Counted from the stretch's first letter, positions 1,189 through 46,986 are shown. The stretch is DNA of 64,000 nt from an uncultured bacterium (GCA_964612295.1 CAZTDY010000009.1:25992-89991); one strand, 5' to 3'. Translations and numbers: made by a program. The notes: generated by a model not told the origin, from the letters alone.

Positions 1189-3366
1189 ATGCCGGCTTCG
1201 AATGCTCTTCGTGCACTTGCTCTCACGATCCTGACCTGTGCGTTCTCCACCGTCTGTGCTGCTTCAGAGTGCATCGACTACAGCGACTACATCCACCTCG
1301 AGTGCAGCTTGGGGACGCCCGGCCCGGCCTTGGGGATCACCATCTCGGACGATCATGCCTTCATCGCGGATGGAAGCTCCGGGTTGACCATCATCAACAT
1401 CACGAATCCAACACTCCCCCAGGTCGTGAGCAACACCGCCACCCCGAGCGCGGTCCATGACGTTGCGGTCTCCGGTCAATTCGCCTATGTCGCTGCCTTC
1501 GATGCGGGCCTGCTCGTGATCGACATCGGCCTTCCGTGGGCGCCCGAGATCGTCGGTAGCATCGTAACACCCGGCTACGCGAGAGGCGTGGCGGTCTCCG
1601 GCAGCCATGCCCTCGTGGCCGACTACTTCAACGGTCTGCAGGTGATCGATGTCTCCGATCCCGAGAATCCCCTGATCGTGACCGGTGTCGAGCTCGACGG
1701 CCTCGCGTTTGCCGTCGCCACCGCGGGCACGCACGCCTACGTCTCGGTCAATGATCACGGCATTGCGGTGATCGATGTCGCAAACCCTGAGAGTCCGCAG
1801 TTGGTCACCACAGTCGACACCCCCGGCCATACGCGCGGCGTCACGATTACAGACCCGTACGCCTACGTGGCGGATGTCGCCACCGGGCTGCAGATCATCG
1901 ACATCAGCGATCCTGAGCACCCTCAGATCGTCGGCAGCGCCGATACCCCGGGCGCCGCGCGGGACGTGGCGGTCACGGCGACGCACGCCTTCGTTGCAGA
2001 CGATGACCGCTGCCTCCAGGCGATCGATATCACCGATCCCGAGAATCCCCGGCTTGTGGGGGCCGCCTATGGAAACGGGGAAGCCTACGGCGTTGCCCTC
2101 CGGGGAGACTTCGCCCTTGTTGCGGACTACACGACCGGTTTGCACGTGATCGACGTAAGCAGTCCGGCGTCTCCCGAACTCATCGGTGGAGTGGACACGT
2201 CCGGACAGGCCGCCTCTTTGGCCGTCGATGACACGTACGCGTATGTCGCCGATCGGCTCGGCGGCCTGAATGTCATCGACATCACGATTGCAGAGGCTCC
2301 CGCGTGGGTCAGCGCAATCAACACGCCGGGGACCACCAACGACGTCGCCGTTCAGGACCAGCTGGCCTACGTCGCCGACGGTTATCATGACGGGCTCCAA
2401 GTGGTCGACCTCAGCGATCCCGAGAATCCCACCATCTTGGGAAATGTCGGCTGTCAGGGCTGGGGCGAAGGCGTGGCGGTGTCGGGTTCGCTGGCCTTCC
2501 TGGCCGACGGGCCATCAGGGCTCCTGGCCATCGATGTCGCGAATCCCCTGTCGCCGGAAGTTCTCTGCGAAATCGAAACCCCCGGGTGGGCCATCGCCGT
2601 GGAGGTCCGCGCCCCCTACGCGTATGTGGCGGATGGCGGGCCCGGTTTGCAGGTGATCGATTTCTCGGACCCGGAAGATCTCCAGATCGTGGAGACCGTG
2701 AACACTTCAGACAGCGCCCGCGATCTGGTGATCTCGGGAGACTATGCCTTCGTCGCCGATTTCCACGACGGACTGCAGATCATCAATATCGCGGATCCCC
2801 ACAACGCCTTCACCGTCGGCCGCGTGGGCCTGCCTGACCTGGCGCGGGATGTGGATGTCGCCGGCCTCCACGCCTATGTGTGTTCGGGTGACAATGGCGG
2901 CCTTCAGGTGATCGACATCTCGGATGTGACCTCCCCTCGGTTCGTGGGGAGCGTGGACACCCCGCACTCCGCCGCAAGCGTGGTCGTTCGAGATGATCTG
3001 GCCTATGTGTGCTGTTGGGAGGAGGGGCTGCAGGTCTTGCACGCGCAGTGCGACGTGTCGGAGGTGGATGACGCCCTGTCCCCCGGTCCGCGGACGACGC
3101 TGCAGACATTTCCCAGCCCGCTGGACACACGCCCCGCCACCATCTGCTTCGATCTGCCCGCAGAGACTCGCGTGGTTGCGTCGATCCACGACGTGACGGG
3201 CCGCGTGGTGCGGTTCCTGCGGGAAGGATCGATCGCAGGCGGCTCTCATGAGCTTCTTTGGGATGGGCGGGATGATCGGGGGTCGCCCGCGCCGAACGGC
3301 ACCTACCTCGTGCGCGTACTCACTCCGCGGGAGACCCTGTCGGGGCGGCTCGTCATCGTCCGCTGA
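1189..3366 (+). CDS. Secreted LVIVD-repeat beta-propeller protein (14 repeats) with C-terminal FlgD Ig-like domain
   Basis: RBS GAGGAGGT before ATG 1189; signal peptide MPASNALRALALTILTCAFSTVCA; 14 repeats of about 42 aa (TPG.A..V.V.G..AYVAD...GLQVID.SDP.NP); C-terminus DVTGRVVRFL...LLWDGRDDRGSPAPNGTYLVRV. Confidence 0.9.
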   Translation: MPASNALRALALTILTCAFSTVCAASECIDYSDYIHLECSLGTPGPALGITISDDHAFIADGSSGLTIINITNPTLPQVVSNTATPSAVHDVAVSGQFAYVAAFDAGLLVIDIGLPWAPEIVGSIVTPGYARGVAVSGSHALVADYFNGLQVIDVSDPENPLIVTGVELDGLAFAVATAGTHAYVSVNDHGIAVIDVANPESPQLVTTVDTPGHTRGVTITDPYAYVADVATGLQIIDISDPEHPQIVGSADTPGAARDVAVTATHAFVADDDRCLQAIDITDPENPRLVGAAYGNGEAYGVALRGDFALVADYTTGLHVIDVSSPASPELIGGVDTSGQAASLAVDDTYAYVADRLGGLNVIDITIAEAPAWVSAINTPGTTNDVAVQDQLAYVADGYHDGLQVVDLSDPENPTILGNVGCQGWGEGVAVSGSLAFLADGPSGLLAIDVANPLSPEVLCEIETPGWAIAVEVRAPYAYVADGGPGLQVIDFSDPEDLQIVETVNTSDSARDLVISGDYAFVADFHDGLQIINIADPHNAFTVGRVGLPDLARDVDVAGLHAYVCSGDNGGLQVIDISDVTSPRFVGSVDTPHSAASVVVRDDLAYVCCWEEGLQVLHAQCDVSEVDDALSPGPRTTLQTFPSPLDTRPATICFDLPAETRVVASIHDVTGRVVRFLREGSIAGGSHELLWDGRDDRGSPAPNGTYLVRVLTPRETLSGRLVIVR

Positions 3367-3369
3367 GGG

Positions 3370-5130: not shown

Positions 5131-5271
5131 CCGTGCTCTACTTGTGTTGTTGGCCGCTTCCACCGCGATCACCTCGTTTCCTTCGATTCGATCGTCGGTC
5201 CCCGTCCCGGGGGATCCGCACTCGTCCCATCGGTCTGGCCCCTCGCTACTTACCAGCCATTTACGCCTGCG

Positions 5272-6436: not shown

Positions 6437-6442
6437 TATATT

Positions 6443-8858: not shown

Positions 8859-8862
8859 AACC

Positions 8863-8909: not shown

Positions 8910-11900
8910 CTATCGCATCACGATCGCCTGCCTAGTTTGCTGAAACGCCCCCGTTTCAAGCCGGTAGAAATAGGTCCCAGACGGCACGGGCCGCCCCAAT
9001 TCGTCAATCCCTAACCAGGTAACGGCGTGAGATCCCGCCGCGGTCGGGCCGTCGATCAATGTCGCCACCCGTCTTCCTTCCGGCGTGAATACCCGCAAGC
9101 GCACCCACCCCGGATCTGCGATGGCAAACTGGATCTGGGTATGCGCCCCGAACGGATTGGGAGTATTCGGATGGAGGGTGGAACGGCCAAGCGTGGGATC
9201 GGACACCGAAGAGGAGGCGTCGGCGGTCGCTTCCTCCCCCTCGTTGCCGGAGAAGTCCGTCACCGTCAGATGGAAGTAGGGATGCACATCTTCGGAGAAG
9301 TCGAATGAGGTGTCGGTTGTGTGGAGAAGCACTTCCGCTGACTCATCCAGGGTCTCCGATTCAGAGCCGTAGAGCGTGAAGTAGTTGAAGTCTTCCACGG
9401 CGGTCTCGTCCCAGGCCAACATGGCGCCCGGTTCGATGCGGAAGTTCGCCGGCGCGGTCGGTGCCAGGTTGTCGACCGAGTAGCCGCTGTCGGGTGGTGA
9501 GTCGAAATACACGCCGGGCACGTCCGTCAGCGCGCGCACGAAGTAGGTCGTGAAGTACATCCCGTCCGCAATCGTGGAGTCTGCCAGGGTGGGCACCACC
9601 ATCGCGTATTCGCCCTCGCAGCAGGCGGGGACCGAGGCCAGATAGTCCCAATCCCCCGGCGGCCAGCACACCCTGAGCAGTCCGCTGCCCGGGTCATTTG
9701 CCGCGTCCGAGTCTTCGCCAGGATCACCGCCCCGCCTCAGATCCTCGTCGATTCGCCGGTAGATCGCGTACTCGGTGATCGGAGTCGTGCTGCCGAGCTG
9801 ATCGTATCCGCTCGCATCCCACGACAAGCGCACCTGCCTCCCCTGATCGTTGGGGATATCGGTGATCGCCGACGCGAATGGAAACTCGTTGAGCCACTTG
9901 ATCTCGAGACCGGTGCAGGTTGGGATGACCAGCGGATCGCTCGAATCCCAGATGTGTTCACTACGCCAGCGCAGGTCGGAGACATCGGCGCCCAGAGTGA
10001 ACCACTCCCCAGCTGCCGGCACACTCACCCATGAGCCGCCCCCATCGTCGGACAACCACCAGTTGTTCTCGCCGACCTGGGCAGGTGTCACGCGGACTCC
10101 CAGCACGATATTGCTCAGGAGCCCGGGGATCGTGAGGGACTGGCCCTGATTGTCCTGCCAGTTCTGGGTGTGCAATGACCTCACGCGGCAGGCCTGCACA
10201 CTGGTCTTGCAGGCCACATAGGCAACCTCGCCCGCAACGCACAGGTCAAGGGATCTGTCCGGCATGCCCACGATGTCTATGATGACAGGCTCCGAAGGGT
10301 CGCTGATATCTACGATCCAGAGGGTGTCGTCATTGACATCCGTTACATACGCTAAATCGCCCGCCACCGTCAGGCACTTGGTGAGGCAGTCGGGCAGGAT
10401 CACCCCCCCCAATAGGATTGGATTGGTTGGGTCGCTGACATCCACCACCTGCAGGCCCCCAGCAACGCAGGTCAGATAGGCGACATCCCCGGAGACCTTC
10501 ACATCGTATGCGTTCCCCGGCACCGGACAGGTGCCGATGACTGCCGGGCTGGTTGGATCGCTGATATCCACAACTTCCAGTCCGTCGTTGTAACCTGCAA
10601 CGAAGACCAGATTACCTGACATGGCCACGCCGTAGGTCGTCGCACCCACGCTAACGATGCCGGTAATCGCTGGGAATGCCGGATCGCTCACATTCACCAC
10701 CCAGAGTGCGTTAGCCCCGGAGTCCAGCACGCAGGCGATATCCCCGGATACGGCCACGCCGTGGGGGTCAGATAGGCCCAGTGTACCGATGACGGTGAGA
10801 TTGACCGGGTCGCTGACGTCAACAATGCTCAACCCGTAGTAGCCGCTCACGACATAGGCAACGTCGCCCGACACCGCCACCTGCGATGCATTGGAGGTCA
10901 GACTCACGGCGCCGATTTCGACGGGATTGGTTGGATCACTGATGTCGACAGCCATCAGGGCACCGTTCAGGTCCACCACAAAGGCCACATCCCCTACCGC
11001 CGCCACGTCTATAGCATACGCGAAGCCCACATTGCCGATCAGGCTCGGGCTGACCGTCTCACCAACCTCCACCACGACCAGACCATTGGCGCGGTCGGCC
11101 ACGTAGGCGACATCGCCCGCCACGACGACCCCCCAGGCCAGATCTTCCGTGTCCGCGCAGCCCATCAATTGGAGGTCGGCCGGATCAGTGATGTCGATCG
11201 CAAGTAGCCCGCTTTCGTAGTCCGCCACGTAGATCATGTCTCCTGAAGTCGTCACGCCCATCGCGCGGTTGGGGGTCACGAGGCTCCCGATCAGAATCGG
11301 GTTCGTCGGGTCACTGATGTCGAGCGCCTCCACCCCGGACCAGTGGCCCGCCACATAGGCGACATCACCAGCAACGGTCACGTCCCGCACGATGTCCGGC
11401 AAGTCGACGCTGGCAATGATGGCCAGGTTCGTGGGGTCCGTAATGTCCACCACCTGAAGATCGCCCACGTAATCCGCCACGTAGGCAACATTCCCCGCCA
11501 CCGCCACTCGTAGGGCTCTGTCGGCCGTCGCGACGCTTCCGATGAGCGCCGGGTTGGCCGGATCGCTGATGTCGACCGCCAGCAGGCCACCCGTGTGGTC
11601 GGCGACATAGGCAACGTCGCCTTCTATCGCAGCGTGCCAGCTCTTTCCGGGCGTAATCATGCTGCCCACAATCACCGGACTACTCGGCGTGCTGATATCG
11701 ATGACCTGCAGTCCGCTGTCCGCATCCGCCACGTAGGCCACATTCCCAGCCACGGTCACGCCGTAGGCGAGGCCCGGCGTGTCGACGGTGCCGATGATCG
11801 CCGGGTTGGCCGGGTCGCTGATGTCGACAACCTGCAAACCCTCCTCACCGTCCGCGAGGAAGGCATGGTTTCCCGCCACAAAGAGGTGGCGTGCTGTTCC

Positions 11901-12237: not shown

Positions 12238-15207
12238 CTAATCCGCACCGATCAAGACAAAGGGGGACCAATAGGCGGGATGGGAGAATGGCTGCGTGCC
12301 GTCTCCATCGGTGTGAGTTCGCAGCCACTGCTTCGCCTCGCGCAGGGCGGGGGTTGCGGGAAGCGTCCCGAGATTCTGATAGAACCTCTCCATGAGAAGC
12401 GCGGTCGCTTCATCCTCCACGTCCCACAAGCTCACGAGGAGGTTTCGGGCTCCGGCCTGGAGGAACGCGTGACTCCAGCCGATGTACCCCTCCCCCGGAA
12501 CCTCGGACCCCAGCCCCGTCTGACAGCAACTCAGCGTGACCAGGTCCGCGCGGATGTCCCACTCCCTCACCACGTCGGCCGTCGTGATCAGGCCGTCGCA
12601 GATTCGTTGCCCGGCGAGGATCGCCTCAAATGGGTCGGGGAGATCGACCGTCGAGAACACGAGCGCGGAACGATCCGGTCTGAGTGCATCCTGGATCGCA
12701 TGCGTCGCCAGATGAATCGTGCGGAAGGATGTCAGCGTCCCGTTGTCGACCATCGTCGTCAGGCTTTGCTCCGTAGCCTCCTCACCGACAAGAACGGTCG
12801 GGCTGGGCAAGAGGCACGCGATCCGCTCGACTTCCTGACGGGTCGCCGCCAGCCGCGGCAAGGCCGCGAGGATCGGCTCGACGTGATCCGGACAGAAGGG
12901 CGGATCCCCCAGGAGAAGCGCTCGATCCTCCTGCGGCCGCTCGCCCAGGCGGCGCTCCCGGAGCCAGCTGTAGATGGTCGCGGACGGCGCGTAGGAAATC
13001 GCCGTGGATTCGATCGCGGCCACCCCGTCGGCATCCACCAGAATCTCCAGTGGGACTCCCAGCAGCGGGCCGTCGGAAAGCACGATCAGATGCGTGATCT
13101 CCTCCAGGTGCGGCATGAGCGGCGCGACCCACTGCCGCCAGAGCTTGTTCCCCTCGGCCGCGATGCGGGTGGTCTCCATCACAGGAAGCGGCCAGCTTCC
13201 GGCCCGGCGCAGAGATTCGCGGAAGGCGTCCACTGACCGGTGAGCGGCAGGGGTCACCTCCTCGAGCGCCACCCAGCGGACCGGACCATCGGATCGGATG
13301 ACGTAGCCCCAGGCGGGAAGATCCAGATGGTCATCTTCGATGTGGACCCACCCCAGGATGGCACAGTCGCTGGACAGCTGAGCCTGCACACGATCCAGCG
13401 CGTAACAGTCGCCGGCCGGAACCGGATGTTGCGCCACGACCTCTTGTTGATGCTTGCTCCAGGCTGCCTGAATCTCGAGAAGCCGGGTTCGCTGCTCGGA
13501 GACCCGCGTCAGCATCTCACGCGACGAATCGGCCCTGGACTGCTGTTGGAGGGCGGTCAGCCGGCGCTCTGCCTGACCCAGCCCAACCCGAAGCGAGTCG
13601 GCTCGTTTTTCCTCGCTCACGCTGAGCGGATGTTCACTGGCGGCAAGCAGAAGGTCCGCCAACCCGCGCCCCAAAGAACGCTCGACCGCCGGCCAGGCCT
13701 GGACGGGATGACCCGCGAGGAGATGGGCGGCAGCCAACATCAGGTGTGGTGAAGCCAAGAAGCTGGAACGGGAGGAGCCGGCACCCATCCGCACCCGGGC
13801 CGTTTCGTAGGCATCGGCGGCTGACGCCAGCAACGACTCGGCCTCAGCGTAGGCCGCACCGGCCAGGGCGCACTCGGCCAAACGCGAGCGCCCCGCAACG
13901 ACCAGAGGATGATCGGGGGAAACCAAGTCCCCCAACATGGCCAGCGCCTCCTCGAGCAGCGGTTCGGCTGCCGAATACCCCGCCGTGCGACGCAAGAGGA
14001 TGGCCAGATCAATCAGGCCTTCGGCGATATCGGGGTGTTGCGCGCCGTAGGCCCGCCGCCGGATCGCGAGCGCAGCGCGCAGCTTCGCTTCCGCCTCTTC
14101 GTTCTGATCCAGTGCGCCATGCAGATGGGCCAGGCCCACCAGGCTCTCCGCGACCGAGGGATGGTCCTCTCCCATCGTTCGGCGACGAATCGAGAGCGCT
14201 TCTTCCAGAAACGGTTGGGCAGACCCGTATTCCTTTCGGTCGTAGAGCACGTTGCCGAGATTGCTGACGTATTGGGCAAGCATCGGATTCGCCTCGGGCA
14301 GCGTGGCGCGAAGGATGGAGATGGCCTCGAGGTAGAGTTGCTCGGCCTGGGTCAGCTTGCCCTGCTTCTTGAGCAGCACGGCGAGGTTGTTGAGACTCTG
14401 GGCCACCTCGCCGGCCTGGTCACCGTGAACCCGCCGGCGCCAGGCCAGCGCCTCGCGAAAGAGGGGCTCGGCATCCGCGTAATGGCTCCGCTGGTAGAGA
14501 ATCACACCCAAGTTGTTCATCCCCGACAGAATCGACGGGTGATCGGGATCGCGGATGTCGCGGATCATCCGGAGGGCTTCGCGGAAGTGAGTCTCGGCCA
14601 GATCGTACTCGCCGGCATCGCGCTCGATACAGGCAAGCGTGTTGAGTACATTGAACGTGTGCGGTTGCGGATGACGCCAGAGTGCGCGATCGAGGGCCAG
14701 GGCCCGCAGCGCGTGTGCACGGGCCTTCTCGAGATGCCCTGCCTCTTTGGCCAGAACCGCGAGGTTGTTGAGCACGATCGGAGCCTCGTACGATTCGGGT
14801 CCCAGGAGCCTGATCCGCACCTCGGCCTGGTGCTCCGCAGCCGTCACGCCTTCCTCATAGCGACCCTGCGCGTGGAGATCTTCGAGGTCTCCATAGGATG
14901 CATCGGCCGCGGCCAGCTCCGCCATCTGGTCGGGAGGAAGCCGAAGAATGTACTCCAGCAGCTCAACGCGGGCGGAGATCTCCTCCCACTGCCACTCGCG
15001 AGAATGTGCATCGGAGCGCACCTGTTCCCGAAGGTCGCGCCCGACCTCGAGCGCCGTCTCATATGCACCCTGCTCGCGTAGGTCGTCGATCGTGGCGGAA
15101 ACAGAGTCGAAGACCGCCTCGGTAACATTCGCGCCGGCGGTGCCCGTCATCAGCGCCAAGAGAAACGTGACCACCCAAACCGAACGGCTAGTCATCGTGA
15201 AGCTCAT
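12238..15207 (-). CDS. Signal-peptide TPR-repeat protein with C-terminal CHAT (caspase-like) protease domain
   Basis: Start 15207 or 15195 (MTSRSVWVVTFLLALMTGTAGA); about 8-9 kinesin-light-chain-type TPRs (LNNLA.L....G.Y..AEPL...AL...R...G..HP); CHAT motifs PLLGVPLE, IHLATHA (His), LVTLSCCQTG (Cys), AGARNLLVSLWDVED, HPAYWSPFVLIG. Confidence 0.9.
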   Translation of the reverse strand: MSFTMTSRSVWVVTFLLALMTGTAGANVTEAVFDSVSATIDDLREQGAYETALEVGRDLREQVRSDAHSREWQWEEISARVELLEYILRLPPDQMAELAAADASYGDLEDLHAQGRYEEGVTAAEHQAEVRIRLLGPESYEAPIVLNNLAVLAKEAGHLEKARAHALRALALDRALWRHPQPHTFNVLNTLACIERDAGEYDLAETHFREALRMIRDIRDPDHPSILSGMNNLGVILYQRSHYADAEPLFREALAWRRRVHGDQAGEVAQSLNNLAVLLKKQGKLTQAEQLYLEAISILRATLPEANPMLAQYVSNLGNVLYDRKEYGSAQPFLEEALSIRRRTMGEDHPSVAESLVGLAHLHGALDQNEEAEAKLRAALAIRRRAYGAQHPDIAEGLIDLAILLRRTAGYSAAEPLLEEALAMLGDLVSPDHPLVVAGRSRLAECALAGAAYAEAESLLASAADAYETARVRMGAGSSRSSFLASPHLMLAAAHLLAGHPVQAWPAVERSLGRGLADLLLAASEHPLSVSEEKRADSLRVGLGQAERRLTALQQQSRADSSREMLTRVSEQRTRLLEIQAAWSKHQQEVVAQHPVPAGDCYALDRVQAQLSSDCAILGWVHIEDDHLDLPAWGYVIRSDGPVRWVALEEVTPAAHRSVDAFRESLRRAGSWPLPVMETTRIAAEGNKLWRQWVAPLMPHLEEITHLIVLSDGPLLGVPLEILVDADGVAAIESTAISYAPSATIYSWLRERRLGERPQEDRALLLGDPPFCPDHVEPILAALPRLAATRQEVERIACLLPSPTVLVGEEATEQSLTTMVDNGTLTSFRTIHLATHAIQDALRPDRSALVFSTVDLPDPFEAILAGQRICDGLITTADVVREWDIRADLVTLSCCQTGLGSEVPGEGYIGWSHAFLQAGARNLLVSLWDVEDEATALLMERFYQNLGTLPATPALREAKQWLRTHTDGDGTQPFSHPAYWSPFVLIGAD

Positions 15208-16003
15208 CTTCGGCCTGCGCACGCGCCCCCACGCCGCCGGGCATCTCCCGCAGGTGGTGGAGCAGTGATTCGGCTTCGGCGAAGCGATCGCACTCTCGCC
15301 AGGCGATGTAGAGAGTCCACATGGCTTCGGCTCCCCAGGGATCCGGTATCGACTCCAGAGGAAGCGGAGCCAGGATCTCGGCCGCTTCCGTGTAGTCACC
15401 CCTCCACGCCAGTGCGCTGCTCAGGTAGACCTGCCGCAGCTGATCATAGGGCGGCTGCGCCTGAGCCGTACTCAGCAGGCGAATCGCCCTGGGCATATCC
15501 CGGCGTCCGTAGGCATCCAATCCGCCCAGCAGATCCGCATCCAACGCGCCGCCTCCCTCGGCGCGGACGTGCTGGAGCTTCTCGACGGCCGGGAGCCACT
15601 GAAGCCGGTGGTCCCTTAGACCGCGATCCGGCAACAGCCACAGCAGGAGCAGAGCAGCCGCCGCTACCGCGCCGAAGGTGAATCCCCAGGTTCGGCGACG
15701 GCGGAAGAGCCCGGCCAGGGATCGGTCTTCCGTCGGCACAGGCAGGGCAGGCTCGAGCACAAAGTGGCCGGACGGATCGCGAACCAGACGATGGCGAGCA
15801 GTGCGGCGTTCATGGCCGGTGACCAGACTGCGGAACCGGGTCTCGCAGGTCGCACAGGAGGAGAGGTGAGCCAGGTGCGCATCCCGCTCGGCTTCCGGCA
15901 GTAGATTGTGAATCAGTTCCAGACACTGATCCTCTGAAACATGCTTCGGATTGGTGGGGGGACTTCCGGCGCCACCCCAGTCGTCATTCTTGGGACTATC
16001 CAT
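15188..16003 (-). CDS. Zinc-finger (zf-HC2/ZAS) anti-sigma factor with one TM helix and a TPR-like extracytoplasmic domain
   Basis: HLAHLSSCATC zinc motif; RRRRTWGFTFGAVAAAALLLLWLLP membrane anchor; helical C-terminus; overlaps the sigma gene stop by 8 bp. Confidence 0.85.
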   Translation of the reverse strand: MDSPKNDDWGGAGSPPTNPKHVSEDQCLELIHNLLPEAERDAHLAHLSSCATCETRFRSLVTGHERRTARHRLVRDPSGHFVLEPALPVPTEDRSLAGLFRRRRTWGFTFGAVAAAALLLLWLLPDRGLRDHRLQWLPAVEKLQHVRAEGGGALDADLLGGLDAYGRRDMPRAIRLLSTAQAQPPYDQLRQVYLSSALAWRGDYTEAAEILAPLPLESIPDPWGAEAMWTLYIAWRECDRFAEAESLLHHLREMPGGVGARAQAEDELHDD

Positions 16004-16703
16004 GGGGCTTCTCCAGATTGAATAGCTTCCACAGCTCGACGAAGGTGCCCGGCGGCATCTCGTGAGGTTCGAACCCAGCCTTGCGCATACAGGCGCGGAT
16101 CATCTCGCGGCACCGCTGCAGGAGAACATCGACATGGCCCGGTTTCAGACCGACCCCGGGATGCGTCGCGATCTCCTTACTCGGCATTTCGCAAAACACC
16201 CTCAGGAACCAGGCGCGACGCGCGCGGGGCGCCAGCCCCCCCGCGCAACCCTTCAGGGCCTCGGCAAAGTCACGGCGTTCGACCTGGAGATCCGGAGGCT
16301 CGGCCGCCCCCGGCTGATGCGTGAAGTGGTTCGTTTCCCGATCCAGTTGAGTCTCCACATTTTCAGCCGAGCGGCGGTGATCGGCTCTCAACGTGTCGAT
16401 CAGGGCGTTCCGCGCGGTCTTCGACAGAAAGGCCGCCACCTCGCCGGGGCTGCGCGCATCCGGCTCCCACCGTCCCGAAACGATTCGATTGAGCAAATCC
16501 AGGGCTTTCTGGGCGGCGATGTCCTCGATGTCATCGTGACTGAAGCCCGTCAGACTGCGCGCATGTCGGTGGGCGTAAAGGGCAATCGCATCGAAGAGCA
16601 ACTTCCACAGATCTCCGCCAAGGCGATCGTTCGGGTGGAGCCGCAGTTCACGACCCAGTTGTTGCAGGCGCTGAGGCCACTCGAGCAGTGCGGAGACGGT
16701 CAA
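15996..16703 (-). CDS. ECF-family RNA polymerase sigma factor
   Basis: Probable TTG start at 16703 (GGGAG 7 nt upstream; ORF open to 16847). Region 2 DDIEDIAAQ...FLSKTARNALIDTLR; region 4 LAPRARRAWFLRVFCEMPSKEIA...VDVLLQRCREMI. Confidence 0.85.
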   Translation of the reverse strand: MTVSALLEWPQRLQQLGRELRLHPNDRLGGDLWKLLFDAIALYAHRHARSLTGFSHDDIEDIAAQKALDLLNRIVSGRWEPDARSPGEVAAFLSKTARNALIDTLRADHRRSAENVETQLDRETNHFTHQPGAAEPPDLQVERRDFAEALKGCAGGLAPRARRAWFLRVFCEMPSKEIATHPGVGLKPGHVDVLLQRCREMIRACMRKAGFEPHEMPPGTFVELWKLFNLEKPHG

Positions 16704-34038: not shown

Positions 34039-36219
34039 ATGTTCTCGCGCCCTACACCGACCCACCGCCCGGCTCATGCCGCGATCCCGATGTTGCTCTG
34101 TCTGATGTTGTTGGCCACAGGCTCCGTCGCGGACGCTCAGTGGGAATCCACGCTCGAACTGATCGCGCCGGATGCGTCGCCGGTCTCGATTCACCGCGAC
34201 GACTACGGGGTACCTCACATCTATGGGGACACCGAGACCGGCATCTTCTACGCGCAGGGGTTCGCCGTGGCCCAGGACCGGCTGTATCAGATGGAGATCA
34301 ACCGACGCGCCGGATTGGGACGCCTGGCCGAGATGTTCGGTCCCGCCTATGTGAGCCTCGATAGAAACACCCGCAAGCTCTACTACACGGAGGCCGAACG
34401 GCAGGCGCAGATCGAAAGCCTGCCTCAGTCTTTCCGGGATATGGCGGATGCCTACGTGGCGGGGATCAACGCGTACCTGGATTCGATGGAGGTCGATCCC
34501 GGCACCTACCGGCCGCTCCCGTTGGCGTCCTGGGTGGTCGAGCCGTGGACGACAGACCACGTCGTCGCCACGACCCAGTACTACATGCGCCAATTCGGCG
34601 AGTTCGGCGGCCAGGAACTGCAGAGATTGGCCGAGCTGGAGAACAACGGACAGGCCTGGTTCGATGCGAACCGTCCGATCAACGATCCCACCGCCCCCAC
34701 GACGATCCCCGATCGAGGGCGCGGGCCCGCGGTGCCCGGCCGCGACTGGTCCGGTCAGCGCGTATCGCTCGAGACCATTGCGCGGATCTCCGAAGAGCAG
34801 TCGCGGATCGATGAGCTGAAGGTCGCGTTGGGCCTGCCTCCCAAGTTCGGCAGCTTCGCGGTTCAGATCACGACCGAAAAATCGTTGAGCGGCAACGTGC
34901 TCCTCCTCGGGTGTCCGCAGATGGGAACCCCGACGCAGGCAGAGACGAACACGATCCACGAACTGGAGTTGCTCTGCCCCACCTACCACATGGGCGGGAT
35001 GACCGTGGCGGGGGTTCCGGGGGTGATTATCGGGCACAACGGCTTTCTCACCTGGACCCTGACCAGCGGCATCAGTGACAACACCGACGTCTACATCGAA
35101 ACCACCCAAACCCAGGCGCTGGATTTCTACTGGCACAACGACGCCTGGGTCCCATTCGAGGCGATCGCGGACACTGTCTTTGACAACAGCGGTACCCCCT
35201 ATCCATTCGAGATCACGCGCACGGTGCACGGTCCCGTCTACTCGACCAATCTGGGCGAGTATCAGGCTTTCACGAAGAAGATGACCTTCTGGAACAACGA
35301 GCTGGAGATGGGCGCTGCACTCTACGACATGTGCACCGCGCGGAGCCAGAGCCAGTTCGAAGCGGCCCTCGGGCAGATCTCGATGTCGTTCAACGTCTTC
35401 TATGCCGGGCGCAACGGTCACATCAAGTATTGGCACGCCGGTTGGTATCAGGATCGCACCGACGGCATCGATCCGCGCCTCCCCCACAACGGCGACGGAA
35501 CGGAGGAATGGGGCGGCCTGCGCGACTTCGCCGACCTGCCCGTGGCCGAGAACCCCGCCCAGGGCTACTTCGTGAACTGGAACAACAAGCCGGTTGTCTG
35601 GTGGGACAACGGCGACAACGTCCCCTGGTCGGGTTGGCACCCGGTGATGAACATCGACAACTACGTCAGCGCGCTGACCCCGTTCGATTACGACGACCTG
35701 AAGGAAACGCCCCACGCCATCGGAAGCCACGGCACCTATCAGCAGGCAATCGAGCTGGGTCCCGCGCTGATCGTCGATGAGAACATCGTGCCGCCGGGGC
35801 AGAGCGCGTTTGTCAGTCTGGCGGGCGTCCCCAGTCCGCACGTCACCGACCAGTGGCCCCTCCATGTGGCCTGGCAGTTCAAGGACCAGATCTACGCGTG
35901 GGATGCGAGCGCGGTTGATGATGACACGCGTGAAGAGGCGGCGGCGCTCATCCGGGATTTCCGGGTGGCCAGTCCACTGATTGGCCAGGGACGAATCGCC
36001 TTCAACCTGAGGAGTGGTGCCCAGATCCACCTGGACATGTTCGATGCGCAGGGGCGCATTGTCCGGCAGCTTCTCAGCGAGCACTTGGAGGCCGGATCCC
36101 ATCAGGTTTCCTGGGACGGGCGGGATCTCAGCTCCAATCCGCTGCCGAGCGGGATCTACTGGAGCCGGCTGCAAGCTGATCGGGAGCAAGCCGTACGGGG
36201 ATTGCTGCTCCTGTGGTGA
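34039..36219 (+). CDS. Penicillin acylase family Ntn-hydrolase with C-terminal FlgD Ig-like domain
   Basis: RBS GGGAGG before ATG 34039; signal peptide; HRDDYGVPHIY, AQDRLYQME, nucleophile Ser in KFG/SFAV (34852), RTVHGP, WNNKP, PPGQS...PHVTDQ; C-terminus AQGRIVRQL...SWDGRDLSSNPLPSGIYW. Confidence 0.9.
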   Translation: MFSRPTPTHRPAHAAIPMLLCLMLLATGSVADAQWESTLELIAPDASPVSIHRDDYGVPHIYGDTETGIFYAQGFAVAQDRLYQMEINRRAGLGRLAEMFGPAYVSLDRNTRKLYYTEAERQAQIESLPQSFRDMADAYVAGINAYLDSMEVDPGTYRPLPLASWVVEPWTTDHVVATTQYYMRQFGEFGGQELQRLAELENNGQAWFDANRPINDPTAPTTIPDRGRGPAVPGRDWSGQRVSLETIARISEEQSRIDELKVALGLPPKFGSFAVQITTEKSLSGNVLLLGCPQMGTPTQAETNTIHELELLCPTYHMGGMTVAGVPGVIIGHNGFLTWTLTSGISDNTDVYIETTQTQALDFYWHNDAWVPFEAIADTVFDNSGTPYPFEITRTVHGPVYSTNLGEYQAFTKKMTFWNNELEMGAALYDMCTARSQSQFEAALGQISMSFNVFYAGRNGHIKYWHAGWYQDRTDGIDPRLPHNGDGTEEWGGLRDFADLPVAENPAQGYFVNWNNKPVVWWDNGDNVPWSGWHPVMNIDNYVSALTPFDYDDLKETPHAIGSHGTYQQAIELGPALIVDENIVPPGQSAFVSLAGVPSPHVTDQWPLHVAWQFKDQIYAWDASAVDDDTREEAAALIRDFRVASPLIGQGRIAFNLRSGAQIHLDMFDAQGRIVRQLLSEHLEAGSHQVSWDGRDLSSNPLPSGIYWSRLQADREQAVRGLLLLW

Positions 36220-39231: not shown

Positions 39232-41979
39232 CTACCTCACGAGCAGCAGGCGCCCTTCCTGCTGGCCGTTCCGGTCGCCGACCTTGTAGAGATACATGCC
39301 GGCGGGGACCATCGTGCCGTTCTGATCGCGTCCATCCCAGTGGAGCCCCTGCACGCCGGCGGGCAGCAGGCTCTCGAGACTCCGAATCTGACGGCCCTGC
39401 AGATCAAAGACCTGAGCCTTCACGATGCCGCCCTGGCCAAGTTCGAATCGCAGCGTGGTCGCTCCGGGACCCGGGTTGGGCGCAGCGCCCATCAGCCGGA
39501 GACCCACGGCCAGCTGGTTCTCACTGATGCCCTGGCTGCCCTCGACCGTGAAGCTGGCCGCCGCCATGCAGGGACCGCGCTCCTCGCCGTCGTCGGCGAA
39601 GGCCCGCCAGTAGTAGGTGCCGTCGGCCAGCGGCGGGCTGACGTACCAGGCGGTCTCGGTAGCGCCTTCGGCCACACCATCGGTCGCGGTCACCAGGCTG
39701 GTGAGCAGCTCATCCGCGAAGACCTGGTAGCCGTAGGTCAGCGTGGTGCCCGGATCGGGATCGGTCGCGTTCAGGACGACCAACTGCGGGGTCGAGGTGT
39801 GCACCAGCTCTCCGTCGCCAGGACTGACCAGCGCGGGCGGGCCCGGCGCGGTGTTGTCCGTGCTCAGGCCGGAGATCAGGAGATCATCGACGTACCAACC
39901 TTCTCCCCCGCTGTTCCCGTCGGAGCCGAAGCGGAAGCGGAACTGCGCCTCGCCCGTGACGCCCGCCAGAGAGATCGTGCCTGCGGTCCAGTTGAAGCTG
40001 CCCGAGTAGACCGGCGTATCCTCGGCGAACGGCCCCGGCTGGCTTCCCTCACGGATCGTGTGGGTGTAGCCCTCGTCGGGCAGAATCTGCACCCAGGGAG
40101 CCTCATTCACCTTCATCTCGATGAGTCCGCCGTCATAGGCCCGGCCGGTGTAGTAGCTGCTGTCCTCGGCATCCATCCAGTGCCAGAAGCTGATCTGGGT
40201 GACGCTGCCGAGCTGGACCGGGGGCGTGATCAGCGCGCCATCGGCCAGGTCCGCGTAGTCGCCGCTGCCGGTGGATCCGAACTTCCAGCTCGTGTCGCCG
40301 CCGCCCGTATGATTGCGCGCCGTGCTCAGGTGCCACTCGTCGGCGAAACCGCCGGTGACGACCTCGTGAGTCCAGTCGCCCTGACCCGACTCCATGTCAT
40401 CAGCGAAGAGGACGGGCATGTCACCCACCGTGTACTCACGCACAAATTCCATCTCGTAGCCGTCCGCAGTCACCAGGATCGAAAGCACCAGGTTGTGCCC
40501 CGCCGGACAGGCCGGATCGACGAAGAAGGAAGCCGGCGTGCCGGCGTTGTCGCCCGTCTCGCGCGCGGCGATGCTGCCCATCGAGGCCTCGGCCGTGATC
40601 ATCTGCACGTACGGATCGTCGGAGCGCAAAACTACGGCGGCGTTCGTCGCGTCAGTGACGATCGCGTCGTTGCGCACGGAGAGGACCACGTCCAGCGTCT
40701 CGCCCGGATCCGGCTTGCCGTCGCCATTGCCGCCGCTCATGGTCAGATCGAGCAGCGTCAGATAGATGCCGGCGGCCTTCATCAGATAGATGTTCTTGGG
40801 GATGTTCTCAGCGACCAACCCCGGGATCTCGGAGTCGCTGGGCCAAAACCCGGAGCCGTTCACCTCGGTGCAGATGCTCCAGACGCGCGGCTTCATCTCC
40901 GTGTCACCGTACGTCCAGTCGAAGGTTGTACCCGAGCAGCTGTAGCCGATCATCGGGCCGGCCTGGCCGACGGGATAGTCCGAGTCTCCGACCAAAGCCG
41001 TGCCGTACTCCATGTAGAGGTCATTGTGCGGGCAGGGATTGTCGGTCCAGCTCCACGGAATGAGAACAACTCCCGCAACGCTGTGGTACGTGTCATGGGT
41101 AATGAACTCATGGTCCATGATGATGTTCATCATCGCCTGCACTTCAGGTTCCGAAGCAGGCTCCGGCCCCAGATAGACGTCATTGCACGGATCGTAGCTG
41201 ATGCCGCCGTTGTCCCACATGTAGGGGTAGTTGCGGTTGGGATCGACGCCGTAGCAGGAGCTGCCCTCGTTGTCGCGGCGGTTCTTGCGCCACATGCCAC
41301 CCCCGCCCGGGTAGGTCGATTCGTTGTAGAGGTATCCGTCCGGATTCACCACCGGAATGAAGTAGGTCTCCCGGTTGTCCACGAGGAAGGTGACTTCCGG
41401 ATCGGTACCGTAGTTTTCGCACAGGTGGCGAATCGTCTCGATCAGCACGTTGACCGTGATCGGCTCGCGGGCGTGGTGAAGGGCATCCATGAGGACGTCG
41501 GGCTCGTCAGGCTCATCGACCCCGACGTTGTCCGACAACTTGATCGCCCAGATCGTGTTTCCTTCCCAGGTCGTGCCGATGGAAAACTTGTCGCTGAGAA
41601 TCTCGGGATAGGCCGCGCTGAACTGGTCCAGATAGGCGACCATCTCACTGTAGGTGTAGAAGTCCCCGAAATTGCGCATCCCCTCGCGCTGGCTCGCGTA
41701 GTGCTCCTCCATGTCCGCGATCTGGATTTCGACCTCGAAACCCAGCGCCTCCAGCCGCTCGATCTGGTCATCATTGCTGACCAGAATGATCTCTTCGCCG
41801 GGCACGTACTTCATCACGTCGAGATCCTGGATCTGGCTGAGGGTCTGCAGATCGATTGCATCGACCCATTGGAGACGAACCTGCATCTTGGGGTGGTTGC
41901 CGGTATAAGCCGTTGCGCTTGAGAAAACCATGCAACCGACTGCCACGACAAGCGTTAGAAGGGCGAGACGCTGACGCAT
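39232..41979 (-). CDS. Secreted M14 zinc carboxypeptidase (carboxypeptidase T-like) with accessory domains and FlgD Ig-like C-terminus
   Basis: RBS GGAGG before ATG 41979; signal peptide; pro-domain; HHAREP, WRKNRR, GVDPNRNY, TYHS, catalytic TEV; MAM-like domain; C-terminus PNP...GRQIRSL...HWDGRDQNGTMVPAGMYLY. Confidence 0.92.
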   Translation of the reverse strand: MRQRLALLTLVVAVGCMVFSSATAYTGNHPKMQVRLQWVDAIDLQTLSQIQDLDVMKYVPGEEIILVSNDDQIERLEALGFEVEIQIADMEEHYASQREGMRNFGDFYTYSEMVAYLDQFSAAYPEILSDKFSIGTTWEGNTIWAIKLSDNVGVDEPDEPDVLMDALHHAREPITVNVLIETIRHLCENYGTDPEVTFLVDNRETYFIPVVNPDGYLYNESTYPGGGGMWRKNRRDNEGSSCYGVDPNRNYPYMWDNGGISYDPCNDVYLGPEPASEPEVQAMMNIIMDHEFITHDTYHSVAGVVLIPWSWTDNPCPHNDLYMEYGTALVGDSDYPVGQAGPMIGYSCSGTTFDWTYGDTEMKPRVWSICTEVNGSGFWPSDSEIPGLVAENIPKNIYLMKAAGIYLTLLDLTMSGGNGDGKPDPGETLDVVLSVRNDAIVTDATNAAVVLRSDDPYVQMITAEASMGSIAARETGDNAGTPASFFVDPACPAGHNLVLSILVTADGYEMEFVREYTVGDMPVLFADDMESGQGDWTHEVVTGGFADEWHLSTARNHTGGGDTSWKFGSTGSGDYADLADGALITPPVQLGSVTQISFWHWMDAEDSSYYTGRAYDGGLIEMKVNEAPWVQILPDEGYTHTIREGSQPGPFAEDTPVYSGSFNWTAGTISLAGVTGEAQFRFRFGSDGNSGGEGWYVDDLLISGLSTDNTAPGPPALVSPGDGELVHTSTPQLVVLNATDPDPGTTLTYGYQVFADELLTSLVTATDGVAEGATETAWYVSPPLADGTYYWRAFADDGEERGPCMAAASFTVEGSQGISENQLAVGLRLMGAAPNPGPGATTLRFELGQGGIVKAQVFDLQGRQIRSLESLLPAGVQGLHWDGRDQNGTMVPAGMYLYKVGDRNGQQEGRLLLVR

Positions 41980-42958: not shown

Positions 42959-43007
42959 AGACCGGGGCGCGCTCGCCTGCAGGGCGCTCGCAAGGGAGAG
43001 AAAACAG

Positions 43008-44309
43008 TTGGCGGCTGACGACCAAGCCCGATCGGCCAAAGCGCTGCTCGCCCGTCTGGATGACGATGAGCTTCGCCGGGCCGAGAAGCGCATCCACAGC
43101 TCGCGCAAGATGCTGCTGGAGTTGCTCGAGGAGTTGGTGCAGATCCGCTCCGAGAACCCTCCCGGCGAGAACTACTTAGAGTGTGCGCTGCTTCTGTCGG
43201 AACGATTGCGTGATCTGGGTTTCGTTCCCCGGCTGATCGACGTGCCGACCCACGAACTCGAGCGGCTCGGGTTGCCGGCGAAGTGCCCGCGACCATCGGT
43301 GCTTGCCAGCCTGGGACCCGAGGGCCCCAACGTCCCGACCTTGCACTTCCATGCGCACTACGACGTCGTTCCGGCCGAGGGTGAGAAGATGTTCAAGCTG
43401 CGGGTCGAAGGCGATTCGGCCTGGGGCCGCGGCACGGCCGATATGAAGGGCGGGATCGTCTCTCTCTTCCTCGCGCTGTCGTCGCTCAAGAGTCTCAGCC
43501 ACCGGCTGCGGGGCCGAATCCTGCTTTCGCTCGTGCCCGATGAGGAGACCGGCGGTGCAGCCGGGACCTCCTATCTCTTCCGCGCCGGCGCACTGCCGAC
43601 GAACTCGATCGGGATGCTCACGCCCGAGCCCACCGGCGGCGTGGTCTGGAACGGGAACCGCGGCGCCCTCACCCTCCTGCTGGAGGTGGGCGGGCAGATG
43701 GCGCACGTCGCGGTTCAGCACCAGGGGAAGAACGCCTTCGAGGGAATGCTCGAACTCGGGCAGATGCTGCGAGAACTCAAGACCGAGGTCGAAGGCCGCC
43801 AGTTCGAGAGCGGCGACCTCGGCATCGACGGGCCGCACTCGATTCTGCTTCTCGGCGGTATCGCGCGGGGTGGCACAAACTTCAACGTCGTGCCGGATGC
43901 CGTGCGGTTCTCCGTGGACCGGCGCTATCATCCGGATGAGATCCCCAAGACCGTGTCGAAGGAACTCGATTCGGTCTTCCGGAAGTTTCGGCGGCGCGGA
44001 TGGCATCTCGATGTGGATCGACTGCAGGAGGGCAACGCCTCGCTCACCCCGCAAGGGAGTTCCTTCGCCGACCTGCTCAGCGGTGTCGTCGGTTCCGTCG
44101 CGAAGAAGCCCCCCGTCTTCGGCCTCTGCCCGGGAATCCTCGAGAGTCGGTTCTTCATCGAACAGGGCACACCCGCCTTGGCCTACGGTCCCGGCGAGCT
44201 GGAGATCAGCCACACGGACCAGGAGCGCGTGAGCATCCGCAAGATCCTGGACGTTGCCACGATCTACACGCGCATGGCTTGGTTGATGGTGGGGCCGTCA
44301 CCGGACTGA
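43008..44309 (+). CDS. M20 family metallopeptidase/deacylase (ArgE/DapE-like)
   Basis: HAHYDVVP, GRGTADMKGG, PDEETGG, PEPT, AHVA, NVVPD, GPG...SHTDQE; TTG start. Confidence 0.9.
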   Translation: MAADDQARSAKALLARLDDDELRRAEKRIHSSRKMLLELLEELVQIRSENPPGENYLECALLLSERLRDLGFVPRLIDVPTHELERLGLPAKCPRPSVLASLGPEGPNVPTLHFHAHYDVVPAEGEKMFKLRVEGDSAWGRGTADMKGGIVSLFLALSSLKSLSHRLRGRILLSLVPDEETGGAAGTSYLFRAGALPTNSIGMLTPEPTGGVVWNGNRGALTLLLEVGGQMAHVAVQHQGKNAFEGMLELGQMLRELKTEVEGRQFESGDLGIDGPHSILLLGGIARGGTNFNVVPDAVRFSVDRRYHPDEIPKTVSKELDSVFRKFRRRGWHLDVDRLQEGNASLTPQGSSFADLLSGVVGSVAKKPPVFGLCPGILESRFFIEQGTPALAYGPGELEISHTDQERVSIRKILDVATIYTRMAWLMVGPSPD

Positions 44310-44331
44310 ACTTGAGCCTGACCCCTCTCGA

Positions 44332-46986
44332 CTACTCCACCACCACGACCCGCCTCGTCATCTGGGCTTCGTCGCTCTTGGCGCGAACGAAGTAGACGCC
44401 CGCCGCGGCAGCATATCCGTTCGCATCACGGCCGTCCCAGGTCACCGTGTGCATCCCGGCCGGGTAGTCCGCCTGCGCAAGAGTGCGCACGCGGCGACCG
44501 CTTGCATCGAAGAGGTCGACCCGCGCCTGGCCACCCGCCGGGAGACTGAGGTGGAGAACCGTGGGGCCGGACGTCACGGACGGCAGCGGCCGGCTGAGAC
44601 GCAGGGCGAACGGCTGGCGTTCCTCGGGGATCCCCTGATTGTCACCCAACAGATACTCGACCGAGTTCTCGAGGAGTTGGGCGGCCACCGCATTGTTCGC
44701 CAGAGCCTCGTAGTCGAACGAGTAGAAGACCACCGCGGGCAAGGAGCGCTCGGGGCTCTCGTAGACGAGGATGCCCGCATCGTCCGGATAGGAGCTGGGA
44801 CCATAGACCACCACCGCGTCGGCGGTCGGTGAGGCCGCATCCTCATCACCGAAGTAGTCGTAGTCGATGTCGAGCGTCGAGGGCAAGGCGTTTGGCGTCG
44901 TCGCCAGCGGATGACTCGCCTGCTCGGCGCGCAGGTTCAGATCACCCACATTGTCGCCGTGGTAGGTGGAGATGTGCAGCACGTCCGAGGCAAAGTGACC
45001 GTAGCCGGGGCTCTGCAGGGCATCGTATGCAATCTCACCGCCCTCGATCAGCAGCTTGCCGCCGTTTTCGATGTAGTTCTGGATTGCATCTCTCCGGCCC
45101 GCCATACGAACAGGGCTCTTGAACGAACCCGCGCTCCAGACGAGCAGGTCATAGTCGGCCCACGTATCCGACTGGGTCGTCACGATTGTCTCCTGGGTGG
45201 CCAGGTAGCCGAGCGTGGTCAGATCATCCGCGATGATGAAAGAGGGGTTTTCATCCCAAACCACGAGCACGTCGGCGCGCGACACCGGCAGCGTGAAGTC
45301 GAGGTCGAGGTTGGCGTTTACCACGCGGGTTTCGGTCACCGTCAGATGGCCGCCGGCACTGGCCACGATGTCGTAGGTGCCGCCGGGTAGGGTCATTTCA
45401 TAGACGCCGGTGCCCGGATTCACAGCAACTTCGACAGAGAATGCACCGCCGCCCATCTGGAGATACGCGCGGACGACCGCGTCGCTCAAGGGGGTTCCGG
45501 TGCCGGCTTCGGTGACAGCGCCATCCACGACGTGCCAGTCCCCGTCACGCTGCAGCTGAACATCGTGCTGCGTCGTCACGCCGGCGGAGACCGTGATGGG
45601 CGACGACGTATAGGTCTGATACCCGTAGGACTCGACCTCGAGCGTATAGGTGCCGGTTTCGAGCATGCGGTGATAGAGGCCGTCCGCCGGATCGTTGTAG
45701 ATCGTCTTGCCGATCTCGGTCACATCGATCGTGGATGCGACCGGTGTTCCGTCCAGCGCATCGGTGACGGTCCCCTCGACGCCGTTGCGAGCCTGATTGA
45801 GCAACCAGATCATCGAATCGCGATTGTCATCCCAGAGACCGGCCAGTTGGGCGGAGGACGGCCACTTCACGTTGTTGAGTTCGATGCAGAAGTGAAGCTC
45901 ATTGCGCCAATGGTAACCCCAATCCTGGAAGCCGCCATGGACCACGTACCATTCCCATCCGATGACCACGCCGTTCTCGAATTGAGGGCTGCTCCACATC
46001 GGTGGATTCCGGAAGGAATACCCCAGCGCGAGGTTGTGAATCTGGTCGTGGTCGGGCGTGTAGACCCCGTACCAGCAATCCCACGGGTAGTTCACCACCA
46101 GGGCGCCCGTGTGGTAGTTCACCCCGATGGTGAAGTTGTAGTCGTACTGCCAGATCATCATGTGCTGCACTTCGGTGGGCCGTCCGGCCGGATCGTCGAC
46201 CGGATCATCGTCCGGATCGGGGAAGTTGCGATTGAGATCGTAGCCGCTCGCGTTGTAGCGGCTCCCGCTGGCATTGCCGTCCGGGTTGTGAAGCGGACAA
46301 AACCACATCTCGAGATCGTCGACCAGGGCGGTCAGCTCCGGATCGACCCCGTACTGGTCGAGGATCAGCCGCAGCAGATAGATGATCATCTCGGTTCCGA
46401 CCGGCTCATCGCCATGCATGGTCGAGGTGAACTTGATCGCCGGCTCTTGCTCATCGACGCTCACGTTGTCGGAGAGCTTCACCATCCAGAGTTCGCGCCC
46501 CTCTTCCGATTGTCCGATCGAGGTCACCATCACGAGGTCGGGGTTGTCCGTCTCCATCTGTAGCAGCTCGGCGGTCAGCGACTCGTAGGTATGGTAGTCC
46601 TCCCGCCCGGGGGTGCGGAGTCCCGCCTCGACACCCTCTTTGAATTCCAGGAATGCCCTGCGAGCCTGGTTGGGAATGGGAGCAATCTCGAAGCCCGCGC
46701 TCGTGAGTTCGGCAAGCTCTTCGTCATCAACGTAGACGGTCGCCGTCGTGCCCTGCACCCGGTCGATGTCCACCCCCGACGACTGTAGCCAATCCAGGTG
46801 TTGCGGGCTCGGCAGCGACACCTCAGCCGGGAATCGGCCGGTGAAGGGACAACGGTCCGCTTCGGTTGGCACGAAGCCTGTTGCTCCCGCCTGGCAGAAC
46901 CACCCCGCTGCCACCAGCAAGGCCACTCCCCACAGCAGAGTCCGTCCGACGCATCCAGCTTCCAGCCATCCACCCGTGAGCCTCAT
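44332..46986 (-). CDS. Secreted M14 carboxypeptidase (N/E, CPD-like) with CarboxypepD_reg-like domains and FlgD Ig-like C-terminus
   Basis: STMHGDEPVG, RYNASGYDLNRNFP, NYHTGALVVNYPWD, CIELNNVKWP; GVEGTVTDA transthyretin-like domains; C-terminus DASGRRVRTL...TWDGRDANG...GVYFVR. Confidence 0.92.
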   Translation of the reverse strand: MRLTGGWLEAGCVGRTLLWGVALLVAAGWFCQAGATGFVPTEADRCPFTGRFPAEVSLPSPQHLDWLQSSGVDIDRVQGTTATVYVDDEELAELTSAGFEIAPIPNQARRAFLEFKEGVEAGLRTPGREDYHTYESLTAELLQMETDNPDLVMVTSIGQSEEGRELWMVKLSDNVSVDEQEPAIKFTSTMHGDEPVGTEMIIYLLRLILDQYGVDPELTALVDDLEMWFCPLHNPDGNASGSRYNASGYDLNRNFPDPDDDPVDDPAGRPTEVQHMMIWQYDYNFTIGVNYHTGALVVNYPWDCWYGVYTPDHDQIHNLALGYSFRNPPMWSSPQFENGVVIGWEWYVVHGGFQDWGYHWRNELHFCIELNNVKWPSSAQLAGLWDDNRDSMIWLLNQARNGVEGTVTDALDGTPVASTIDVTEIGKTIYNDPADGLYHRMLETGTYTLEVESYGYQTYTSSPITVSAGVTTQHDVQLQRDGDWHVVDGAVTEAGTGTPLSDAVVRAYLQMGGGAFSVEVAVNPGTGVYEMTLPGGTYDIVASAGGHLTVTETRVVNANLDLDFTLPVSRADVLVVWDENPSFIIADDLTTLGYLATQETIVTTQSDTWADYDLLVWSAGSFKSPVRMAGRRDAIQNYIENGGKLLIEGGEIAYDALQSPGYGHFASDVLHISTYHGDNVGDLNLRAEQASHPLATTPNALPSTLDIDYDYFGDEDAASPTADAVVVYGPSSYPDDAGILVYESPERSLPAVVFYSFDYEALANNAVAAQLLENSVEYLLGDNQGIPEERQPFALRLSRPLPSVTSGPTVLHLSLPAGGQARVDLFDASGRRVRTLAQADYPAGMHTVTWDGRDANGYAAAAGVYFVRAKSDEAQMTRRVVVVE

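Follow-up and report, generated by a model that had tools for sequence, protein, structure and literature searches.

The secretion system of type IX (T9SS) is typical of the Bacteroidota. It 'may also be present' in a number of further phyla of the Fibrobacteres-Chlorobi-Bacteroidetes (FCB) group, among which the Eisenbacteria are not listed (PMC11285876). A survey with TXSScan found the complete system in Bacteroidetes only (PMC4793230). Tails of the TIGR04183 family are present on the cellulases of Fibrobacter (PMC6851124), and the T9SS cargo of Flavobacterium johnsoniae comprises 40 proteins of type A and 12 of type B (PMC9127263). The type A C-terminal domain (CTD; TIGR04183 and PF18962), known from the RgpB, PorZ and PorU structures of Porphyromonas gingivalis, is an Ig-like sandwich of about 80-90 aa with PxP and GxY motifs and a basic last strand. 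It ends otherwise unrelated proteins that are exported by Sec, and PorU itself bears one. The proton motor of GldL and GldM and the ring are regarded as essential in the T9SS of Bacteroidota. Here we investigate a stretch of 64,000 nucleotides (the window; GCA_964612295.1, CAZTDY010000009.1:25992-89991; 63% G+C) from an uncultured bacterium, in which six secreted proteins share a FlgD_ig-like C-terminal domain, together with the genome that contains it. A reading of the window alone (the original prediction) had taken this domain for a modular export or anchoring tag of a T9SS-related pathway. Judged from named homologues, the source is one of the uncultured Candidatus Eisenbacteria (Eiseniibacteriota), of which we know of no cultured representative. 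The nearest named homologues of PorV, at about 64% identity, are entered at NCBI as 'PorV/PorQ family protein [Candidatus Eisenbacteria bacterium]', so public annotation has already recognised T9SS parts in the phylum.

The tails of the six proteins are very probably T9SS type A CTDs that serve export by SprA, PorV and PorU. The proteins, with their N-terminal domains as assigned by Pfam, are:

1189-3366 (+), cargo A: Sec signal peptide; LVIVD beta-propeller (choice-of-anchor B-like), 362.9 bits; CTD at 3100-3363, FlgD_ig 39.4 bits
8910-12131 (-), cargo B: Sec signal peptide; LVIVD beta-propeller, 355.7 bits; CTD at 8913-9176, FlgD_ig 24.4 bits
16831-18603 (-), cargo C: Sec signal peptide; N-terminal part of about 500 aa of no known family; CTD at 16834-17097, FlgD_ig 46.9 bits
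34039-36219 (+), cargo D: Sec signal peptide; Penicil_amidase (Ntn hydrolase), 322.8 bits; CTD at 35953-36216, FlgD_ig 37.5 bits
39232-41979 (-), cargo E: Sec signal peptide; Peptidase_M14 (zinc carboxypeptidase), 224.3 bits; CTD at 39235-39498, FlgD_ig 27.4 bits
44332-46986 (-), cargo F: Sec signal peptide; Peptidase_M14, 166.4 bits, and CarboxypepD_reg; CTD at 44335-44598, FlgD_ig 45.2 bits

All six open reading frames (ORFs) begin with ATG, 5-9 bases downstream of a GGAGG-type Shine-Dalgarno sequence, and all six encode the typical signal peptide that had been claimed for them. The Pfam scores likewise bear out the earlier naming of A and B as LVIVD propellers, of D as a penicillin acylase and of E and F as M14 carboxypeptidases. 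Cargo C had been described as a jelly-roll protein. Outside the tail it matches no family, it has 5 homologues among 5.8 billion proteins, and its AlphaFold model, with a predicted local distance difference test (pLDDT) of 49.7, is too poor to judge; the label is therefore not confirmed.

An alignment and a common hidden Markov model (HMM) place the six tails in one homologous family of about 88 aa. With an HMM built from the tails, that of cargo A scores 83 bits and the match reaches its final residue. The shared motif is PNPF...F.LP....V.L.V.D..GR.VRTL..G...AG.H...WDGRD..G..V..G.YF.RL; after it comes a final hydrophobic strand that usually ends in R or K, and the consensus reads sPNPFrgettIrFeLPeaGeVrLeVFDvsGRLVRtLadGeleaGeHeltWDGrDdrGrpvpSGVYFvRLrtgdesatRrvlLLR. 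Against Pfam FlgD_ig each of the six tails scores between 24.4 and 46.9 bits, five of them above the gathering score of 27 bits and that of cargo B slightly below it. For the T9SS sorting-domain model TIGR04183, which has a cut-off of 23 bits, the full-length proteins E (28.3 bits) and F (26.9 bits) are above the cut-off, B scores 22.5 and C 17.3, and A and D are absent from the match list; the tail of cargo F, taken by itself as a domain, reaches 31.3 bits. Tails isolated from across the genome match TIGR04183 in 100 of 101 cases and PF18962 (Por_Secre_tail) in 76 of 101 (E <= 0.01), while FlgD_ig is matched by all 101 and the CTD segment of the PorU model by 99. The matches to TIGR04183 are weaker than those to FlgD_ig. 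The tails have the features of type A CTDs, namely PxP, GxY and a hydrophobic, basic-ended last strand, and they are basic overall (net charge +1.2), whereas the proteins that bear them are elsewhere acidic (-7.4 per 80 aa). An AlphaFold2 model of the CTD of cargo F (pLDDT 92.4) is an Ig-like sandwich of six long strands and short N-terminal ones. Its top PDB matches in Foldseek are FlgD (3c12, 7bhq and 3osv) and P. gingivalis PorZ (5m11) and PorU (6za2, TMq 0.75).

Because the tails match both families and resemble both in fold, the 'FlgD-Ig tag' and the 'T9SS CTD' are one object. From its sequence and modelled fold, the tail is a T9SS type A CTD of a FlgD_ig-like flavour. It agrees with the Bacteroidota domain in its C-terminal place, its size and sandwich fold, its motifs and basic last strand, its distribution over unrelated Sec-exported cargo and its presence on PorU. 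It differs in lying nearer to FlgD_ig and in having an extra conserved loop, AG.H...WDGRD..G. The tag itself is ordinary, being a sorting domain already covered by NCBI and Pfam models and now found in one more phylum. With the Ig-like domain of the flagellar hook cap protein FlgD (PF13860; 3c12, 3osv, 7bhq) it shares the fold and 25-30% identity (Foldseek, phmmer). In FlgD, which is encoded in a flagellar operon, this domain is by contrast internal and is preceded by the N-terminal FlgD domain. We rejected the idea that the six cargo are FlgD proteins, since they lack the FlgD N-terminal domain, have signal peptides and mostly enzyme or propeller domains, and carry the Ig domain at their end. 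The genuine FlgD of this genome is encoded on contig C7 (33209-33997), adjoining flgE.

The genome assembly is of 4.82 Mb in 222 contigs and is 96% complete. With a crude, home-made gene caller based on codon bias we called 3,718 genes (91% coding), and tagged proteins were found by an iterated HMM search. The tag is present on 267 of these approximately 3,718 proteins, which is 7.2% of genes and 12.9% of residues, and the very large tagged secretome that had been supposed from the window is thus borne out by a genome-wide count. The window has exactly 6 tagged ORFs by the tail HMM; at the average density of the genome, 64 kb would be expected to contain 3.5. The tagged proteins include proteases, amidases, propellers, giant adhesins and selenoproteins. 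They are far more numerous than the cargo of F. johnsoniae (40 of type A, 12 of type B), and to give them about 7% of its genes, with 13% of the coding residues, is a heavy investment by this organism in a surface or extracellular proteome. Cargo on this scale shapes the ecological reading of Eisenbacteria.

By a crude and permissive hydrophobicity rule, 82-86% of tagged proteins have a signal peptide, compared with 38-43% of untagged ones. Those tagged proteins that fail the rule are mostly start-site miscalls, proteins with twin-arginine (Tat) signals, and read-throughs of in-frame TGA (selenocysteine). A tag that also occurred on cytoplasmic proteins would have spoken against an export role; across the genome there was no sign of such cases, the apparent ones being start miscalls, Tat signals and in-frame TGA read-throughs, and we reject this possibility.

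Is the domain then a sorting signal, or a structural or adhesive Ig-like module, such as a stalk or a domain that binds glycans or the cell wall, which has no export role? The latter would account for FlgD_ig being a stronger Pfam match than the sorting-domain models, Ig-like domains are common in surface proteins, and the PDB fold matches of the CTD model also take in many unrelated Ig-like domains. Such a module would not be expected to behave as this one does. It occurs in a single copy per protein (no protein has two), the HMM match extends to the last model position, at the last residue, in 255 of the 267, and an internal domain is found in 5 only, one of these being the true flagellar FlgD. 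It is borne by functionally unrelated proteins and by PorU, it has the PxP, GxY and basic terminal strand of type A CTDs, its isolated copies match TIGR04183 almost without exception, and throughout the phylum it is found together with SprA, PorU and PorV. We therefore consider a purely structural role very improbable.

The interpretation of the tails as T9SS CTDs holds because the genome encodes SprA, a porU-porV operon and further barrels of the PorV family, which are likewise the proteins of the Bacteroidota system. As had been noted, there is no secretion machinery in the window; the T9SS parts are all elsewhere in the genome. Of the components for which a search had been proposed, SprA, PorU and a PorV/PorQ-family barrel were found, GldL, GldM, GldN and PorP were not detected, and GldK was represented only by FGE-sulfatase paralogues. 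SprA reaches 548 bits where 200 is the cut-off, and its match to F. johnsoniae SprA (6h3i) has an E value of 7e-53. PorU scores 487 bits against a cut-off of 420 and bears the same CTD as the cargo; the motifs VGHGS, with the His, and ITASC, with the Cys, fall in an alignment on the dyad region of P. gingivalis PorU (6za2). Directly 3' of porU is the PorV/PorQ-family barrel (NF033709, 162 bits against a cut-off of 90; 6h3i_F at E 4e-9), which at 105 bits is below the PorV equivalog cut-off of 250. Several additional PorV-like barrels are present in the genome. The two loci are:

Contig C29, 35527-43181 (-): sprA locus; upstream a divergent lptF/lptG-like permease, downstream an M28-family peptidase and then rimP-nusA-infB-rbfA
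Contig C56, 26-16709 (-): porU cluster, in the order porU (with CTD), porV, M6-like (with CTD), two DUF5683-like genes, an NHL-like gene, F2 and F7

The sprA locus has a conserved housekeeping synteny, and in 12 relatives the neighbours of sprA are housekeeping genes only, with no motor candidates among them. By analogy with the 'Q-rule' of Bacteroidetes, the M28 protein 3' of sprA could be a glutaminyl-cyclase-like enzyme.

Of 12 genomes taken from across the phylum, most keep the porU cluster, loci of 11 relatives having been compared with that on C56, and its genes may be lineage-specific T9SS accessory parts. The M6-like protein is an inactive metalloprotease with a CTD (NF052323, 200 bits). 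F2, of about 1,150 aa, is an outer-membrane protein with modules in common with SprA (hhalign probability 96.6%, E 6e-10, 83 columns), and F7 is an Omp85/BamA-like barrel, its match to BamA being weak. This composition raises the question of whether a real sorting tag feeds a different or hybrid outer-membrane machine, for example one made of F2 and F7 beside porU-porV. The conservation of the whole cluster, the SprA modules of F2, the BamA likeness of F7, weak as it is, and the failure to detect GldL, GldM, GldN and PorP would all fit such a machine. Yet of 121 genomes of the phylum, 113 encode a full-length SprA that scores above the curated cut-off, with its conserved housekeeping synteny, and PorU and PorV are the proteins that canonically handle CTDs, whereas F2 and F7 are tied to the cargo by gene position alone. 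A hybrid machine is thus improbable, if somewhat less so than a structural module, and export through SprA, PorV and PorU is the reading that we prefer.

In that route the N-terminal signal peptide of each cargo first directs it through Sec into the periplasm, the step that can be read directly from the sequences. The cargo would then fold in the periplasm, and by homology SprA, the giant outer-membrane translocon, would recognise the Ig-like CTD. A PorV-family barrel would receive the cargo as a shuttle. PorU, a predicted cysteine-peptidase sortase that itself bears a CTD and has the catalytic His and Cys, would remove the CTD, after which the mature protein would be released or joined to a surface glycolipid. 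About 7% of genes would use this route.

One gene pair touches on the shuttles. On contig C14 (32435-49652, +) the gene for a CTD-tagged protein of 5,145 aa precedes one for a fusion protein of 553 aa, in which a PorV-like barrel is joined to thrombospondin type 3 repeats and to a peptidoglycan-binding OmpA domain. The fusion may be a dedicated carrier or anchor of this giant adhesin.

The motor and ring parts present a different picture. The models for GldL (TIGR03513), GldM (TIGR03517) and GldN (TIGR03523) had no matches in this genome. As a positive control, in Bacteroidota genomes chosen by a 16S signature GldM was above its cut-off in 12 of 12. Local HMMs were then built from 12 Bacteroidota gldK-L-M-N operons and run with hmmsearch --max over all ORFs of this genome, where the best E values were 0.1 for GldL, 0.22 for GldM and 0.59 for GldN; the best GldL match (E 0.1) proved to be a coiled-coil artefact. 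The best E value with a local PorP/SprF HMM, made from 3 sequences only, was 0.56, and a PorV paralogue has a weak match to PF11751 (25.4 bits). GldK is the best NCBIfam match of at least 10 FGE-sulfatase paralogues, but with 80-108 bits these stay below the cut-off of 350, the match covers just their C-terminal half, and none of them has GldL-, GldM- or GldN-like neighbours. A topology scan for adjacent genes with two transmembrane helices (GldL-like) and one (GldM-like) gave only a LapA/LapB-like pair and one irrelevant pair. Five stators of the MotA/ExbB/TolQ type were considered as a substitute motor and rejected, none being near sprA, porU, porV or the PorV paralogues. One motAB pair is followed by a tagged gene, which is uninformative for the motor question.

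Since GldL, GldM, GldN and PorP are undetected and GldK has only paralogues, the pathway is T9SS-related and not a complete T9SS of the Bacteroidota type. With the trans-envelope motor and ring undetectable, the homologous parts may work differently here.

Several points weigh against assigning the tails to export by SprA, PorV and PorU. GldL, GldM and GldN are undetected in this genome and GldM throughout the phylum. The full-length TIGR04183 cut-off is passed by just two of the six tails. The signal-peptide figures come from the crude gene caller and the hydrophobicity rule, and not from SignalP. In addition, cleavage of the CTD, attachment to the surface and dependence on SprA are argued from homology with the Bacteroidota proteins, and are to be read as predictions.

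Is the missing motor a gap in one assembly or a property of the lineage? We sampled 121 genomes of the phylum from 62 genera, 103 of them of high quality, in which GldM, SprA and PorU were the proteins searched for. SprA was found in 118, including those above its curated cut-off, and PorU in 119. GldM was found in 0 of the 121, which makes its absence a lineage property and not a gap in a single metagenome assembly. The sequence evidence for absence of the motor and ring is good. The undetected motor could also reflect divergence past sequence detection.

We can only tentatively suggest, at slightly under an even chance, that Eisenbacteria have, phylum-wide, a high-throughput type IX pathway that truly has neither the proton motor of GldLM nor the ring of GldKN. 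Its core may consist of SprA, shuttles of the PorV family and PorU, accompanied by the lineage-specific porU cluster from the M6-like protein to the Omp85 barrel, and other, novel means may power or gate transport through SprA. GldKLMN may then be an addition made in Bacteroidota for gliding and high-load secretion, and not ancestral. If this is true, the presence of SprA and PorU in nearly all genomes and of GldM in none is a natural experiment on the minimal T9SS, and Eisenbacteria bear on how SprA transport is energised. In a literature search we found no paper joining Eisenbacteria with T9SS terms, and nothing usable stating that T9SS outside Bacteroidota lack GldLM. In a published lineage of the FCB neighbourhood outside Bacteroidota there are likewise secreted hydrolases with basic C-terminal tails of the T9SS type. 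Eisenbacteria are unnamed in those published cases, and here the machinery has been examined part by part and in 121 genomes.

Some tagged proteins have features of their own. Four have twin-arginine signals (RRxFLK-type) in place of Sec signals:

C1:16621-18054 (-), tagged protein with Tat signal
C59:14128-15531 (-), tagged protein with Tat signal
C83:5199-6764 (-), tagged protein with Tat signal
C132:2068-3531 (-), tagged protein with Tat signal

This suggests that folded, possibly cofactor-bearing proteins are passed from Tat to the T9SS. About 10 further tagged ORFs start immediately 3' of an in-frame TGA:

C3:19063-19968 (+), TGA-preceded tagged ORF
C27:16861-17763 (+), TGA-preceded tagged ORF
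C81:16990-17907 (-), TGA-preceded tagged ORF
C6:61713-63566 (+), TGA-preceded tagged ORF
C67:2157-3047 (+), TGA-preceded tagged ORF
C1:59694-61577 (-), TGA-preceded tagged ORF
C149:255-1166 (+), TGA-preceded tagged ORF
C138:1199-2893 (-), TGA-preceded tagged ORF
C6:121354-121974 (+), TGA-preceded tagged ORF
C69:19574-20095 (+), TGA-preceded tagged ORF

Upstream of the TGA there is an ATG and a signal peptide that leads to ...TATW, and downstream the frame opens with xxC. The genes thus read W-U-x-x-C, and are therefore thioredoxin-fold selenoproteins exported with a T9SS tail. The genome has one tRNA-SeC (aragorn), and the nearest known kind to these tagged selenoproteins is NF045500 / GOS_C.

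A second C-terminal ending, unrelated to the first, is present on 18 predicted proteins, which end in ...[ST]WGxIKxxY/F-R/K-COOH. Examples are:

C1:45036-45974 (+), protein with WGxIK-type ending
C5:114499-115896 (+), protein with WGxIK-type ending
C10:21557-22396 (+), protein with WGxIK-type ending
C35:28540-28971 (+), protein of 143 aa with an Ig domain and then a short WGxIK-type ending

The FlgD_ig-type tail is the C-terminus of none of the 18.

The remaining genes of the window are housekeeping genes, ABC transporters, glycan synthesis genes and an operon of extracytoplasmic function (ECF) sigma factor, TPR and CHAT genes, which lies directly 3' of cargo C on the same strand (12238-16703, -). 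Those of note are:

15996-16703 (-), ECF sigma factor
15188-16003 (-), small TPR protein
12238-15174 (-), TPR-CHAT protease of 978 aa
3370-5172 (-), secreted protein of 600 aa with a signal peptide, no CTD tag and a weak match to DUF5013
58593-61283 (+), predicted membrane-anchored multihaem cytochrome of 896 aa

As the 600-aa protein has a signal peptide and lacks the CTD, not every exported protein here is tagged. The predicted cytochrome has an N-terminal multi-pass membrane domain and C-terminal CxxCH motifs, its haem-binding motifs being CFNCH, CAACH and CVICH.

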